The notes under the pieces are model-generated. The model was not told where the DNA came from, searched no databases, and worked only from the letters and a program-made list of their open reading frames with translations. A stretch of 64,000 nucleotides of DNA from Hydrolagus colliei (taxonomy: Eukaryota). This document shows, piece by piece, positions 13,726-63,610 of the stretch (the first letter of the stretch is position 1; every line of letters begins with the position of its first letter). The position numbers were made by a program, and so were the translations under genes. The stretch spans positions 13,578,001-13,642,000 of the forward strand of contig CM068748.1 of the NCBI GenBank assembly GCA_035084275.1, in the 5' to 3' direction.

Positions 13726-13752
13726 GGTTCACCTGGTTCGAGAGGTGAAAAG
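13726..13752 (+). CDS. COL13A1: COL1 exon, GSPGSRGEK (27 nt)
   Basis: tttatag|GGT...AAG|gtgaga. Confidence 0.9.
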
Positions 13753-13817
13753 GTGAGAACACTTTGCCATTATACTGTATGTACATAATCTGGTAAGACT
13801 ATATATAAAAAACATTA

Positions 13818-14619
13818 CCGTATATCTCCGCTTATAAGGTGCACCCGCGTATAAGGCGCACCCCCCGTTTTTGACCTTTTCTTGGTGAAAAAAAACGGAA
13901 GCATTTTCAATGATATTGCCGGCAGAAGGGAGGAGAGACAGGAGAGACAGGTAGGTAGGGAGAGAGAGAGGCAGGCAGCCAGGCAGCCAGGGAGGGAGAG
14001 AGGGAGTCAGGGAGAGAGAGAGGGAGAGAGGCAGGCCGGCAGCGTGGGAGAGAGAGAGGGAGAGAGAGAGAGAGGCAGGCCAGCAGCCCGGGAGAGAGAG
14101 AAGGAGAGAGGCAGGCCGGCAGCCCGGGAGAGAGAGAAGGAGAGAGGCAGGCCGGCACGCAGGCAGGGAGGGAGGGAGGGAGGGAGGGAGAGCGGCAGGC
14201 CGGCAGCCCGGGAGAGAGAGAGGGAGAGAGGCAGGCCGGCACGCAGGCAGGGAGGGAGGGAGGGAGGGAGGGAGGGGGAGAGGCAGGCCGGCACACAGGC
14301 AGGCACGCAGGCAGGGAGGGAGGGAGGGAGAGCGGCAGGGAGTGAGGCAGGCAGACTGAGTTCGGCAGAAGGTAAGCACAGCACTGAAGTCCGCTGCTGC
14401 TGCCGCTGCCCGGGCGGCCGAGGCCAAAGCCCCATCACCCGCTCCTCCCAACCCCCGCCGGACACTGACCAAACCCCGGCTGACAGCGCGCCGGCCGCCC
14501 CTCCTGTTTACTGTATTTCCGAGGCTCAAAATTGCTTGTTCCTGCGTATAGGGCGCACCCCCAACTTTCGAGATCTTCCGACATGAAAAAAAGTGCACCT
14601 TATACGCGGATGTATACGG
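13818..14619. mobile_element. Non-autonomous Tc1/mariner-superfamily (Tc2/pogo-like) MITE, 802 bp, with G/A-rich minisatellite core
   Basis: TA on both sides (13816-17, 14620-21); 27-bp TIRs CCGTATATCTCCGCTTATAAGGTGCAC vs CCGTATACATCCGCGTATAAGGTGCAC (3 mismatches); subterminal GCGTATA(A/G)GGCGCACCCC repeats; GC-rich compared with the flanks. Confidence 0.9.
13921..14360 (+). repeat. Purine-rich degenerate tandem array: (GA)n, (GGGA)n and GGCAGGCCGGCA units
   Basis: Repeated gagagaggcaggccggcagcccgg units; source of the low-complexity ORFs in the track. Confidence 0.9.
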
Positions 14620-14650
14620 TAATTCCAATGTTTTCTGTTTATTTGCAAAG

Positions 14651-14677
14651 GGTGAACCTGGTCAAAAGGGAGAAAAG
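14651..14677 (+). CDS. COL13A1: COL1 exon, GEPGQKGEK (27 nt)
   Basis: ttgcaaag|GGT...AAG|gtaaga. Confidence 0.9.
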
Positions 14678-44252: not shown

Positions 44253-44330
44253 GGTTCGACAGGTCAGAAGGGTGAAGCAGGAAAAACTGAAATTATCGAT
44301 TACAATGGGAACATCAGTGAAGCTCTCCAG
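44253..44330 (+). CDS. COL13A1: COL2/NC3 exon, GSTGQKGEAGKTEIIDYNGNISEALQ (78 nt)
   Basis: ttctgtag|GGT...CAG|gtaaat; MACIT NC3 motif DYNGN. Confidence 0.96.
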
Positions 44331-52579: not shown

Positions 52580-52615
52580 GGTGCTTCTGGCTTAGACGGA
52601 CAGCCTGGACCACCG
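52580..52615 (+). CDS. COL13A1: COL3 exon, GASGLDGQPGPP (36 nt)
   Basis: ctgtccag|GGT...CCG|gtgagt. Confidence 0.94.
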
Positions 52616-54426: not shown

Positions 54427-54462
54427 GGATCACTAGGACCAAAAGGAGAAAAAGGAGGCCGG
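54427..54462 (+). CDS. COL13A1: COL3 exon, GSLGPKGEKGGR (36 nt)
   Basis: tcttgtag|GGA...CGG|gtaagc. Confidence 0.93.
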
Positions 54463-55969
54463 GTAAGCATGCCTGAACATTATGATACTTAAATGTCCCT
54501 TTTTTTATGCATGGTATTTTCAAGTAAAGCTCAACCTAATGTTTACATATACTACAGCCGGAAGTAATTTAACAATGATTACAGTTGTAAAATTCAATGT
54601 AACATCATTTGGCAAAGTAATATTGAGTTGACATTCATTACATCAAATAAACCAATGAATGCCACTGCAAATGCCCCTTATACGCTTTTATTGAAAATAG
54701 TTTTATCTCTTCCTTGAAATACTGTTATTTGGAAGCTTTTGACAAAACTATTTGGGAGTTTTCATTCGATGGGATTTATTAAGGTTAGAAACAAACAAAT
54801 GAGTCATTTGTAAAGTGCGTTGTCAAAGAGTGATTTTCATTAACTTATAAAATATAACTTTAACTTAATTTAACTTAAGTGAAATATATTGCTCAGTTTG
54901 ACGTTGAGCATTTTTTTAAAAGGTTTGTTGTGCTGTTATTCTTTGCGTTCTTTTGCTGCTTTTTTAAAAGAAAATTCCTCCGAACAGGTCTACCTTAACC
55001 CCTTCAACCCTTCTTTCCATATTTAATCCCTGATTATCCTCTCATCCTACTCAAAGTGTTTTTTCCTTCTCTCTCTCCTGACACTGATTCCTAATGTATG
55101 AACCTCTCCTTTCCTGCAAGGTTTTTTTTTCTAATGTATAATCTGTTCCTATCCTTTTTTAAAAAAAAATTATATATTGCATTATTGCTCTGATGTTTAT
55201 AAATGAATAGGAAGTAAGCACCAATGAAATGCACACTTCTGCCCTTTTTAGAATAAATCAAAACATTTATTTTCCAACTATATCAAGTACAAGGATTATT
55301 CTGTGTTTAAAAATAATTTCTAAGATATTATTCAGTTACATTTCGTGCATATAATTTTAATTTAACTATTTATAAATATAGCTTTTGAGTGTTTGTGTAC
55401 ATTCTTAAATGTGTTGAATTATTTTTAAAAAATTTAAATAATGCACTATTTTAAAGCAAAATATTTTTACTTGGAGAAAAAAAGTATTTCCTCAAAACAA
55501 AAACAATCACAATTATTTTAAAATACAAAACCCTTTCATGTGTTAGATCTACACGAATAGAGCACTAGAGTATACTATTACACATCAACAGTACATCATT
55601 CCTTGTTTTGCTTTGCATCAACCTTGTCGAATAATTTCCTAACTTGGTAGAAAATTTAGGAAGAAGTTTGATTTCTTCAGAAAGGAGTTCTGTGCAGTTA
55701 TATTCTCATTTCTAGTATCCTTCACATAAAGGACAGAGGTGCAATTTCCATTTATAAATTGAATTAATTTTCTTTACCATTTTATTTTGTGAAATCTGTA
55801 AAAAGATAACATATCTCATCTCACCAATGGTGGTAATATCATCTAAATAACCCCCAAATTAAATAGTTTTTTTTTGTTTCCATTTTGTATTTCCTTATCA
55901 CCAAGATATTTTCTGCAGAAAGAAAGTAAAATTGTTCCAACTTTTTCCTTTGACGAATATTGTTTGCAG

Positions 55970-56056
55970 GGGGAGAAGGGAAAGAGAGGTTCTAAAGGGC
56001 CTAAAGGGGATAAGGGAGACCAAGGAGTGCCTGGATTAGATGCACCTTGCCCATTG
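55970..56056 (+). CDS. COL13A1: COL3/NC4 exon variant [30 protein letters not shown] (87 nt)
   Basis: gtttgcag|GGG...TTG|gtatgt. Confidence 0.95.
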
Positions 56057-56659
56057 GTATGTTCTGTTGATGTGATCTGAAATGGAATGTATGTAATGGA
56101 AAAATAAGGGAGGACCTTCCTGAATGTTGCTTTAAAATTGTCCGTCATTGCAGCCCTCAAGGCCAAATACCATGGGTGTGGAGTCCCTCCATTATAATAT
56201 TGGCACAAGATATGGAGTTAAGTACAAAGTGTGACTCTGGAGTGTATTGGAGTTAACATTTGTGTGCACATTGCTGGACCAGGATTTGCTCAGTCTGCAA
56301 TGGTATTTCCTTGGTATTCCTTGAATTGCCACTGCTTTGCAACCTGAGTACCGACATCCACAAAAGGTCTGCTGCTGCTTTCAGGGCTTATCAGTGAAGA
56401 TTTGTATTCACAGAGCATTGGATTTTGAACATCATGATTTCATTTGTGACATTCAAAATCGGAGATCATCCCTTGGGCAGGTTCAAACACTAGGCAGGTT
56501 CCAAGGGTGCAATGATGTTTTGTAATATTTTCCTCATGTGCTGTCATGGAGGTATATACCGATTTGCAGATTCCACAGTCCTCCTTCCTTTCTCCATCTA
56601 CATGAAAGTCAGTATTAAGATGTATCTGTATTAACCGAGTCAGTTCATTTTGTAAACAG

Positions 56660-56737
56660 GGATTCCGAGGCTTTAAAGGAGAGAAAGGTGAACCGGGCTT
56701 ACCAGGCCTGGATGGGCTTGATGCCCCTTGCCCATTG
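56660..56737 (+). CDS. COL13A1: COL3/NC4 exon variant [27 protein letters not shown] (78 nt)
   Basis: gtaaacag|GGA...TTG|gtatgg. Confidence 0.92.
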
Positions 56738-57496
56738 GTATGGTGTTATCTCCCTTCCCTTCCTGCACGTCTTATCATTTTCAATCCACGTTCATGCATG
56801 GTAACTAAATAATAACACCTAGTGCAACATGGATAAAATGCTTTTTTTGCATAACCACCATTATTAACAGCCAGTGACTATCATGCATATTAACAAAGTT
56901 AAATGAAATAGTTTGTTATAAGTATAAACGTGAAACACTTAAAGCAAAGCTTTGTAGCATATAAAGTGTTACTCACTTTGTCTATTTGTCAATTCAAAAT
57001 GTTCTTGCAGAGTAATCCAAGTTAAACCTACCCAATGTTTTTTTTTAACCAAATAGAGAAAATAATTGCCCAATTCATGTAAGAAACACTAAATCAAATT
57101 CTGATCTGTTTCCCAGAAAATAGACTAAGCTGTGTTTAAACTTGTGCATGTTTACACTTGAGAGTACATTTTACAAACCTTCCATCCCATCACCGATATC
57201 AAAGATTTGTAACATTTCATGTGCTAAAGACTGCATGAAATGGATCACAAGGGCCAACTGTAATCAGCCCGTCTTGACAGCTGAGAGAGAAATACATAGG
57301 AGGAAGGGCATAGGAGGAGAAATCCTATCACGATTCAAGTTAATTGAGTTAAATCATACTTTTCCCCTTATATGCATAAAATAATTATTTTTAGCTTGTG
57401 ATTGTATCATTAGTTTCTATTTTAAAAGTCAGGGATTTCAACCAGACTTTACACGTCAACCAGACCTTTCACCTTCCACTTCAACCAGACCTTATA

Positions 57497-57630
57497 CACT
57501 GCTGTGTGCAATTGGCTGCCACGTTTCTCCCACAAAATATACAGTCAATTCACTTTACAGTGTATTCTGTGAAGCACTTTGAGACTTCTTGAAAACGCTA
57601 AATCAAATGCAAGGAGTATTATTATTATTA
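57497..57630 (+). mobile_element. SINE 3' half
   Basis: GCTGTGTGCAATTGGCTGCC...ACAGTCAATTCACTTTACAG...CAAATGCAAGG(ATT)n. Confidence 0.8.
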
Positions 57631-59661
57631 CACAAGCACCCCTCTAATTATTATATTGCTGCTACAGGAGGTTCTCTCGTGGACTCTACCCTTGTTTATC
57701 GTATTTATTATCCTGTTTTCTTTTTTAAACCAATTAAAAATTAACACTTCCTCACCTTTTCCCCACCTTTCCTTAAAACCTGCCCTCAGTGCATTCCAAC
57801 CATGTACCAATGGGTCAATATCAATTACCTCAATTAAATTGTTTTAAGCACATAAGTAAATTGTAACTTTAAAGTGTGTCCATAAGAAATAAGCAAAATA
57901 TAGTGTAGTTCTATCAGTTTTTTTTGTGTTAAAAAAATGTACTTATAAGTATCTGTAATGCATATTATGTGTTTTGTTAGAAGGCCTTGAATGTACAAAT
58001 AATGTTCTTTTGATTTTAGATATGGCTCAAAAATGCAAACTGTTTTAATGAGCTATTTATCGTTACTTAGGCATATGCATGAACTATGTGGTTCTTGTGT
58101 TTGGTTTCTATGTTTTAAAAAAGCATGTTGCATACAATTGCCAAGCTATAAATGAACATACAATTTCATCACAGTGCAATGAGCTATCGTTTGTCAGTTC
58201 AATCTTGATTGATGGATAAAATAGTGCACATTCTATTTCAAATGTTCCTTGGAATATTTATTTCATTACAATTTGCAGAGGGAAGAATTGCCCTTAACTA
58301 AGAGCAGAGATCTTAACATTGTAGAGCAGAGAGCTTAACATAGTAGCAGGGGAAATAATGTGTATTGCATAAAATATTGTGTATTGTAACATATACACAC
58401 AGTAATTTATTTGCAACATACAAGTTTTAACTCCAGTCATTTTTACATGGTTATTGCAAAGAAGAAACAAAAGGGTCATTATTACAATAATTTGCTCTGT
58501 AATGGGTACTTTAGAAAACAATCTTGAAAATTCATGAAGTAAATTTTGGTGAGTGGGAAATATCCAAATCCCTAAGGACAAAGTCTTTCTCTGTCATATA
58601 TTGGTTGGATCATCAAATTATATTTGCTTCCTTTTTGACCGTGCTTGCTTCATGTTTGTGGTTCTGAACAGAAGCATTAACTGGTGTCATTTGGAACAGA
58701 CCTATCTTGATTTCTAACTGAGTTCAGTTCAACCGTTCATCTTATCGATGGCCACAAATTCCATACCATTTCAGTCAAACATGAAATTGAATAAAATGGA
58801 ATCTAAGAAAAAATGTAGAGCTTTATTAAATTATCTAATTTGTCACTGATCAAAACCCTTAAATAGTTTCATTTCTAGACTTTCCAACTATTTAAATTGT
58901 TGTCTTGGTTAAAAGCTAAACAGTTTATAATCTTGCATCAATGTATAAACTAGACCTGACACAGAACAAAAACACTGTAAAAAGTCCTTGAAGCTGGGAC
59001 CTATGGGAAAAATTAATCACAGAGTGATTGTAAAATAGCAGACCCAAAAATCACAAAGTTCTGATGAATTAACTCATGTTTAGTACTAAGTGAGTGACTT
59101 TCACATTTATAAAGGATAACTTTAATAGATGACACAAAGTAAAGGAAAGGTCAGAGCACTGAAGAAGTATGACTGATCTTCAAAGCTCCAGTGAATGTTA
59201 TTAAAGAAAAATTCCTGAAAGACTATATACAGATTTACCCATTCTAAGTAGTGTGAGAGCACCTAAATTAAGTTCACTAAACCACAGTAGTGAATTAGTA
59301 AATATATGACTCTTAAGACAAATATTACTGGAAAAGTCCTTTAAAAATAAAGTTGTTTACTATTCTAAAAATGGTTGAAAACTGCAGGGAAAGCGATAGC
59401 ATTTGATGACCCAAATCAAGATTGTTACTCAATTCTGTTGGGAATATTGAAATGCCATTTCTGGAATGGAAATGGTCAGGATTGAATAATGAACATATGT
59501 TTCCGGATTTTTATAATTGATTATCCTTAAAACATGGGCTGAAATCTATTTTTTCAAATTGAATAAGATAATGTGGATGATGAGAAAGTACTGAGTGAAA
59601 AGAATGAAACGGAAAGTAGGCAAGTATATGAAATTAATTTCTTTATTACTTTGAAACTCAG

Positions 59662-59700
59662 GGTGATGATGGCTTACCTGTACAAGGCTGTTGGAATAAA
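59662..59700 (+). CDS. COL13A1: NC4 exon, GDDGLPVQGCWNK (39 nt); stop codon is in the next exon
   Basis: aaactcag|GGT...AAA|gtaagt. Confidence 0.96.
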
Positions 59701-60475: not shown

Positions 60476-60938
60476 ACAACAACAACAACAACAATTTACA
60501 TTTATAGAGCGCCTTTCACGTCGGGAGGACGTCCCAAGGCGCTAAACAAGAGGCGTGTGACCCGAGCTGGGAGGGGAGTGTTTGGGAAGGGGTGAAACAC
60601 GAAGGGGAGGTAAAAGAGTTCGGGGTGGAACAAAAGGCACGATCGAAGAGGAAAGTCTTCAAATCGGCCTTGAAAGAGGAAAGGGAAGAGGCGAAACGGA
60701 GGGATTGAGGGATGGCATTCCATAAGGTGGGAGCGGAGAAACTGAAGGCCCGGCCTCCGATGGTGGGGCGGTTCGGGCGGAGGGCTTGGAGCAGGCCAAG
60801 TCCTGTTAAACGGAGGGTCCGGGTGGGCGTGTAGGGGGAGAGTAGATCGGCTAGGTAGGATGGGGCAAGGCCGTGCAAGGCCTTGTAGGTGAGGACGAGG
60901 ATCTTAAATTCGATCCTCTGGAGGATGGGGAGCCAGTG
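60476..60938 (-). mobile_element. LINE2 3' fragment, young (ORF2 C-terminus intact)
   Basis: Translates HGLAPSYLADLL...GGRAFSFSAPTLWNAIPQSLRFASSLSSFKADLKTFLF, a typical L2 RT C-terminus; (TTG)n tail. Confidence 0.92.
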
Positions 60939-62882
60939 TGATGTTGTTGTTGATATGGTCCAGAAGTTAAATACATACTAGATCAAAGCATAGAACACCT
61001 TAACAAATTGTGTGTTTGTTAGGATTACATCAGCAATTGCTCTAAAATATTATAATCTGTTCATTGCTCAAAAATTAAAGAAGAAATGTATTAAGGAATA
61101 ATGCAGTTGAAATCAGCAATTCAGAACAACCATTCTCCCCTAAATAAACAATCAGAATTCAATGTACCATGTACAGTACTTATACTGAGAGATACTTAAA
61201 CTGGAGCTCACTGCTCTGTGGGAATATTTTGTATAATATATTCTAAACTTCTGAGTTAGTCTATTTGGCACAGATATCAGACATTTGAATGGAAAATATT
61301 GGTCATTTAAACAGATTACATGAGGAAAGATATATTACTTCAGAAAAGTCAGAGATGTTTTATATTTATAAGCAAAGTGAGGAAGAGAAAATGAGTGTGT
61401 GCCTTGAGCTTGCCAAGGCCCTGTGGTTACTGACTGACAATTTCTTAGCATTAATCCAATCCATACACTCACATAGAATGATTCAACTGGGAGATTTAAA
61501 AGCAGACTGACAGACTTGTATACCAAAAATTGGCTGTGAGGATTTTAAATATCTTTTGGGCCTTGAGCACTGGCGGATGAAAAGGTACAAATGCAGTCAA
61601 CCCACAATAAATGATTACGATGGTTTGACCGTTTTCAAACTATACAAGGAATGAGCAGTGAGGATTGGGAACCAAATAAAAATCATTTCAAAATAATATA
61701 TTTGTGAGTAGAGCAGTGAGAATAACTTGATTTTTTAAATAGCTGTGTTCGTACTGGATAAGCGAGCGAGGTCCTTTAAGGAATATGTGAGGTAGAAATA
61801 TTGTTCAAAGGATCAGGAAATGGTAAAAAGTGTTTAAATGAATTCCTCAAAATGGTCTATAAAAAAAATGCAGACAAAGCAAATTTTCGATCCAGTCATT
61901 TTGGCTCAATCTGTAACAGATGTAGAGGTAGGAAAGCAAGTGTAATGTTTCATGTGTTCTAAATTCAGAGTGACAGCTGGCAGAAGATGAAGATTAATTA
62001 TTTTTATGAAAACTTCAGTGCGTCCAGTTATTTTCTCCCCATTGCCATATGTGCCTTTGCTCTTGATCCCCAGCCTCCTCACACTGAGCTGAGGTTTCAC
62101 GGATGTTGGTTGTCGTCCAGCACCCCGCCCGGGCATTGTTCATGTCTAAATTGCAGACACTTCACGTGTAGATGGCTTCACAACAGAACCTCACCTCACC
62201 CAGCTGCCACACACACATACAACCAGTGGAGGGTGCTAGACTGTGGCTGGCTTTCCCCCTCCAACCTTGGCTGGACAAATTCACCCAACCCATCTAATAA
62301 ACTCAGCATGGACTGGCTCACAAATCTAGACTCCACTATTAAAATGTTGCTAATTGCCTCTCTGGCCATATGAAAGTAGTAGTAGTACCAGCATGGACTA
62401 GACTTCGAGCCAGTGAACTCCTGTTCCATAAGCTGAAACTCTTTACAATACACCATTGAGGCTGTCTCCGAAAGGATACAAGGTTAAAAATCAGATGAAT
62501 GATTTGTTCAAGGAATATCTGAGTGGCTTTACTTGAATGATGGGATAAATTTGCTAATGAAAGTTTACGGCATAGATGCCACTTAATGGGATGAATCTTC
62601 ACTTAACTGTAGAATGTGGGAAGAAAAATTTGCTTCAGAACAAACATTTTCCATTAATTAGATGTTCTCTAGTTTAAGTGTTCTATGGCTCCACTTTAAT
62701 GACATATTTTTCTGCCTTTAATCTCTGTGTCAGCCATGGCATTTTGCACATGAGGCCAAAACTAATATTTTTAAAGCTTATTGCCATGGGATCACATGAG
62801 TAACACTGAATTTAATGATATGAAAGTGTTGCTTTTTGATAGTATGCAGCTCTGGAACCAACTATGTTTTTTTCTGCTCCAG

Positions 62883-63020: not shown

Positions 63021-63610
63021 GAATTATTAGCTATTTAGGCTATACTCTGGATTCAGAGTTCATTCAGTTATGCCTGTGTTTCAGATAGATTTACTTTACA
63101 GGGATTTGCAGAAGTGTTACAAGGGGAAATCAACAAGGGAAATCTTTGTGAATATTTTCTTTCACTACCAGTTAAATTTTACAGTGGGTAGGTGAAAGTG
63201 GCCTGACTTTTTCACGTGCATTCTGTTTCGAAGTACAGTATAGAGTTTTGAGTTTCAGCCCAGAAAGGATTGGATGTTAGACAAAGTGTTCTCTGGGGGA
63301 TGTGAAATCACAACAAAAATCAGTACCAGTAGTCCTACAGCTCATGAATCAGAAGCACAAAATTTATCCATTCTTTGGACTTCCCTCAAGATTAGAGAAA
63401 CACCATTCTTTACCAATCAATGTAAATGCACGCATGCTCTGGCTTCCAGTTCCTGTCACCTACTTCAGCATTCAGTTTCACAAAGCCCTAAATCTGGTTC
63501 ATGACATATTCTGTGACGCCTCATGTTTAAGCCCTGAATCTTGAACTAACCTGAGTTTGTTTTTCTTTTTTCTTTTTGCAGTGATGATGATCTAACCACA
63601 GAATGGAGTG

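Follow-up and report, generated by a model that had tools for sequence, protein, structure and literature searches.

The MACIT collagens XIII, XXIII, and XXV have an interrupted triple helix with an NC3-type segment, a conserved C-terminal region with two cysteines, and many optional in-frame exons (Tu 2015, PMC4678570), features that they have in common with the gene described here. Both COL13A1 and COL25A1 are genes of neuromuscular disease (PMC4678414, PMC12669723, PMC7848082). Heparin, perlecan, nidogen-2, and fibronectin are ligands of collagen XIII (PMC4678414), and PTP-sigma/delta are bound by collagen XXV (PMC7848082). The role of the MACIT C-terminal region is stated as unknown in Tu 2015 (PMC4678570). 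In the excerpted text of that paper, splicing is described as exon deletion, a duplicated exon goes unmentioned, and the term "mutually exclusive" occurs 0 times.

The closest described systems are the human counterparts of the exon pair that we analyze here as exons A and B. In the supplementary table of Martinez Gomez 2021 (PMC8373072), event 49 (COL13A1) and event 50 (COL25A1) each consist of a 29-amino-acid (aa) and a 26-aa exon and are entered as tandem-duplication substitutions of the internal class, with gene duplication = 1 and Gnathostomata as the last common ancestor. For both events, the proteomics cell and the cells for three earlier catalogues are blank. The A-only/B-only transcripts are ENST00000645393/ENST00000357811 for COL13A1 and ENST00000642955/ENST00000399132 for COL25A1. 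Elsewhere, the part of Hatje 2017 (PMC5740500) available to us lists four COL13A1 exons, all different from A and B, and a COL25A1 cluster (2215) that comes without a sequence, and the pair is not mentioned in the main text and one supplementary file of PMC9741552. Enforced exclusive duplicated exons, such as those of SCN2A and SLC12A1 (PMC8373072), are likewise tandem homologous exons that predate gene-family duplications.

The pair itself, its occurrence in the two genes, and its dating are therefore already catalogued, and the locus described here is the expected orthologue. Event 49 is the orthologous event, with a 29-aa A followed by a 26-aa B; its A-B intron is 979 nt by the table coordinates, compared with 603 nt here. 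Event 50 is the paralogous pair, with equal lengths and order. The table rows for event 49 carry no regulatory motif, no polarity (A as the ancestral exon), and no junction counts. In the full-text literature that we searched, whose coverage leaves outside most subscription journals and the older papers on collagen XIII splicing, three points made below did not come up, namely, the RBFOX-type site conserved after B, the standing of A as the likely ancestral exon, and the difference between the reference exons.

Results

Identity of the gene

We analyzed a 64,000-nucleotide stretch of the Hydrolagus colliei genome (assembly GCA_035084275.1, contig CM068748.1, positions 13,578,001 to 13,642,000), referred to here as the window; positions are those of the window, on the plus strand unless stated otherwise. 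Judged by its sequence, the gene that carries A and B is the COL13A1 orthologue. There are 34 candidate collagen exons on the plus strand of the window, every one bounded by AG/GT and in phase 0; interrupted Gly-X-Y domains are encoded on short exons of this kind, and an NC3-type exon lies at 44253-44330. The 5' exons of the gene, with the type II transmembrane segment and the furin site of NC1, presumably lie upstream of the window. The C-terminal region has two conserved cysteines, and its last exon is of the collagen XIII type. This last coding exon (59662-59700, 39 nt) carries the second cysteine and agrees with the end of human collagen XIII at 12 of 13 residues, by eye against the Tu 2015 alignment (PMC4678570, supplementary file 1). 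It terminates in a donor at 59700, and the TGA stop codon (63582-63584) appears to open the final exon 3.9 kb downstream, whose use we infer from an AG acceptor with a pyrimidine tract. The last coding exon of a COL25-type paralogue in the same genome (G000:C1) likewise terminates in a donor. A stop codon at the start of an exon is the arrangement that a 1988 paper on collagen XIII reportedly names in its title.

Three other features of the window were recorded. A GC-rich low-complexity repeat with long open frames on both strands lies inside an intron at ∼13730-14660. A 153-codon open frame on the minus strand (∼60520-60977), in a GC-richer patch, may resemble the end of a LINE-type reverse transcriptase. 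A 36-nt exon at 52580-52615 has a counterpart at G000:C1:50907721-50907756, with a 12-residue translation identical in the two paralogues; it is missing from the reference protein of human collagen XXV as aligned in Tu 2015 and may be another old optional exon.

Exons A and B

Exon A (55970-56056) is 87 nt long and encodes 29 aa, comprising eight Gly-X-Y triplets followed by APCPL, with a basic N-terminal half. Exon B (56660-56737) is 78 nt long and encodes 26 aa, comprising seven triplets followed by APCPL. Both exons are in phase 0, are bounded by AG/GT, and encode GLDAPCPL at their 3' ends; a 603-nt intron (56057-56659), which lacks GCATG, separates them. The neighboring upstream COL3 exon occupies 54427-54462 (36 nt, 12 aa). 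The coordinates and translations of A and B, as well as the flanking junctions at 54462 and 59662, are as given in the original prediction, which had been made from the sequence alone. Its description of the splice sites as good holds for the AG/GT ends of both exons but not for the acceptor of B (56631-56659), which is weak, with pyrimidines at only 10 of 20 positions and an upstream AG at -18. This acceptor combines a TAAC at -28/-29, a putative branch point, with a poor pyrimidine tract and an AAACAG end, and it is kept in all five loci that we compared.

Over their last 26 codons, A and B are identical at 51 of 78 nt and 17 of 26 residues. Nine of the 17 common residues are written with different codons, among them the TTA GAT GCA versus CTT GAT GCC difference pointed out in the original prediction. 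A has six Lys/Arg residues and a net charge of +2, and B has three and a net charge of -1, so that the proposed change in the basic patch next to NC4 is borne out. B has two aromatic residues and an extra GLD, A has a Lys/Arg cluster, and the first conserved C-terminal cysteine is supplied by either exon. A genome-wide search with a pattern of the exon end plus donor returned three matches, namely, A and B of the window and A of the paralogue, compared with 0 for the reversed control. At the protein level, a search with the C terminus of a full-length model and a HMMER search of representatives returned mostly unrelated collagen repeats, and just 1 of 146 new representatives had the motif.

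Age of the duplication

The COL25-type paralogue (G000:C1) contains an 87-nt A and a 78-nt B in the same order, 651 nt apart, followed by a collagen XXV-type ending. A pattern scan of metagenome contigs recovered three vertebrate loci, one of COL13 type (L048) and two of COL25 type (L047 and L049), and all three had both exons in the same order. Among the 10 exons from these five loci, identity was 58 to 75 of 78 nt within exon type and 40 to 51 of 78 nt between types. A tree of the 10 exons (5 A and 5 B, 78 nt) separated A from B with support of 100/99, and a topology holding the four COL13 exons together was rejected (p-AU, 0.0066). The exons are thus grouped by type rather than by gene, which, on these sequences, places the exon duplication before the split of COL13 and COL25. 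Adjacent homologous exons in the same phase that are more similar across species and paralogues than between copies have the pattern of a tandem duplication. The original prediction of an old duplication with both copies under constraint is upheld by the pair in both paralogues, the codon differences, the tree, and the human catalogue, and both exons are found in all five loci and in human.

At the protein level, exon A of the COL25-type gene is identical to human COL25A1 A (29 of 29 residues). By eye, A of the window and human COL13A1 A agree at 25 of 29 residues. B of the window matches the second exon of human COL13A1 at 25 of 26 residues and human COL25A1 B at 23 of 26 residues (also by eye), so that its nearest human match is the second exon of COL13A1 itself and not, as had been suggested, the COL25A1 ending.

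Homologous segments from arthropods bear on which copy came first. The six named segments match A at 21 to 24 of 26 residues and B at 16 or 17, and five unnamed segments are also nearer to A (16 to 19, versus 14 to 16 for B). Because the arthropod homologues match A, A is likely the ancestral exon and B the derived copy, as far as these comparisons go.

We found no COL23A1-type gene in this genome by pattern searches, short-protein searches, or an NC3 protein search, a result that does not imply absence; COL23A1 may have diverged, be missing from the assembly, or have been lost. The candidates for a third paralogue that were inspected individually (L010, L016, L017, L019-L023, L025-L027, L030, L036, L037, L039-L041, and L046) proved to be other collagens or matches by chance. 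For human collagen XXIII, the ending shown in the Tu 2015 alignment contains, by eye, a 29-residue segment, the length of A, with some B-like residues.

RBFOX-type motifs around exon B

Both paralogues keep the same arrangement around B: a poor pyrimidine tract ending in AAACAG before the exon and, past the donor, GCAYG after a run of pyrimidines. In the window, the motif at this conserved position is TGCACG (56764-56769); the other four loci have GCATG. A GCAYG was found at +24 to +38 after B in all five loci, compared with 3 of the 33 other donors in this gene that have one at +15 to +45. The RBFOX motif named in the original prediction, TGCATG at 56795-56800, is present but is a second site, at +58 from B, and 5 of the 33 other donors of the gene also have a TGCATG within 100 nt. 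A conserved RBFOX-type site after B thus stands, and it is not the copy that had been reported. The QKI-like motifs proposed to follow B were not supported, as the consensus ACTAAY is absent from the intron span 54463-59661.

The five A-B introns contain neither GCATG nor GCACG; for GCATG, this is 0 in 3,007 nt against 5.4 expected, with one locus supplying 2.9 of the 5.4. The conserved GCAYG therefore lies in the proximal downstream intron, with none upstream, as in an RBFOX-regulated cassette exon. We also examined 53 database open reading frames (ORFs) that read across B into the intron, after excluding 14 near-duplicates. Codons +6 to +16 were compatible with GCATG in 45 of the 51 ORFs that were long enough to score (2 of 53 were too short), compared with 36 of 380 control windows upstream and 49 of 190 further downstream; this peptide test indicates compatibility only, on ORFs that are themselves related.

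RBFOX proteins bound downstream of an exon generally activate its inclusion, with GCACG as one of the primary motifs (10.1101/840272). The weak acceptor and downstream GCAYG, conserved in five of five loci and in both paralogues, predict RBFOX-promoted inclusion of B, and we infer from sequence that B is an RBFOX-promoted exon.

Possible joint or exclusive use of A and B

The original prediction presented A and B as a probable either/or switch, which, taken strictly, would place exactly one of the two in each functional mRNA. Several observations agree with this. The human A-only and B-only transcripts are classed as internal substitutions, and the authors of the catalogue describe them as mutually exclusive (PMC8373072). 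All reference proteins in the Tu 2015 alignment have exactly one cysteine-bearing segment. In the window, a 16-nt helix with 94% complementarity, between 55581-55596 and 56059-56074, would loop out A and cover its donor and could thereby mask it. However, unlike the SCN2A/SLC12A1-type pairs, A and B are subject to no co-inclusion frameshift: their lengths of 87 and 78 nt are both multiples of 3, and A plus B is in frame without a stop, so that the joint form is not a target of nonsense-mediated decay (NMD). A steric clash is not expected either, since the A-B intron is 346 to 973 nt long across the five loci and the branch-point-like TAAC lies at -28/-29 from B in all of them, far from the donor of A. 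The helix at the donor of A (-20.5 kcal/mol) ranks only second among 33 donors, no clear equivalent was seen in the other four loci, and we rejected competing RNA helices as a shared mechanism. Thus, we found no feature in the loci compared that would enforce exclusion, whether by frameshift and NMD, steric clash, or conserved competing helices. Further, both-in and both-out forms are annotated. The col25-like gene of Puntigrus tetrazona has four RefSeq models, one each with A plus B, B alone, A alone, and neither exon, and both GenBank predictions from Dissostichus have A plus B; the evidence for joint inclusion thus consists of predicted models, one RefSeq XP record and two GenBank records from one species, and the RefSeq set is col25-like, not col13. 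In human fibroblasts, exon 36 of COL25A1 is skipped on its own and in frame (PMC12669723); from the exon count (38 exons in the transcript, with the stop in the last), this exon would be B and the product a form with neither exon. On balance, we regard strict exclusion as unlikely.

The opposite reading, in which both exons are usually included in this species and COL3 is lengthened with a second cysteine-bearing interruption, is in our estimation quite improbable. It draws on the A-plus-B models in two teleosts, on an A-to-B junction that nothing blocks, and on the tendency of duplicated exons to become constitutive (PMC8373072), but human reference proteins have one exon each, and the weak acceptor and downstream GCAYG of B, conserved in both paralogues, fit regulated inclusion. 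Least credible, to the point that we give it almost no weight, is that one of the two exons is a duplicate from the assembly or a silent relic. Beyond the weak acceptor of B, nothing speaks for this, whereas B is 25 of 26 residues identical to the human COL13A1 second exon and recurs in the 53 genomic read-through ORFs and all five loci, and A and B share just 51 of 78 nt; conservation in other genomes refutes it. As read from the sequences, A and B are probably a substitution-biased but unenforced pair, for which strict exclusion is unproven.

In the four Puntigrus col25-like models (P0046, P0167, P0168, and P0169), an 18-residue exon that lies upstream of A occurs only in models that lack A, a hint that its splicing is linked to that of A in these predictions. 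A lizard prediction (P0078) has the same skip, and a sturgeon prediction (P0048) does not.

Discussion

We consider it reasonably likely, on the evidence above, that A and B are intact copies of a penultimate exon that arose before the split of COL13A1 and COL25A1 and that they act as frame-neutral cassettes that mostly replace each other, probably without being forced to do so. In the model that we propose, A would be the ancestral default exon, and abundant RBFOX proteins would turn on B by way of the GCAYG that closely follows it. Reading from the sequence, a swap of A for B would make COL3 one triplet shorter and halve its Lys/Arg content while keeping the first C-terminal cysteine; inclusion of both exons would give two cysteine-bearing interruptions, and skipping of both would remove the first C-terminal cysteine. 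The likely purpose of such a choice may be to adjust how the tip of the ectodomain binds acidic partners, for example, heparan sulfate. A literature search found no mapping of heparin- or PTP-sigma/delta-type binding, or of disulfides, to the A/B segment.

A broader and more tentative proposal, which we hold to be possible but rather doubtful, is that collagens XIII and XXV have in common an RBFOX-controlled switch dating from before the vertebrate genome duplications, by which the ancestral basic tip would become neutral in nerve and muscle, altering the binding of these neuromuscular-junction collagens to heparan sulfate or receptors. The human COL25A1 reference protein carries B and the COL13A1 reference protein carries A. 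Because the references carry different members of the pair, published alignments of the COL13A1 and COL25A1 C termini compare nonorthologous exons. If the RBFOX-switch proposal is true, the difference between the reference C termini would reflect isoform choice and not divergence of the paralogues.

What is useful here beyond the catalogued pair is a concrete and testable model for a region whose function Tu 2015 calls unknown. If the choice between a basic and a neutral segment is conserved and probably driven by RBFOX, it would bear on the choice of isoform for binding assays. In that case, variants in the exon missing from the reference transcript, B in COL13A1 and A in COL25A1, would merit attention.
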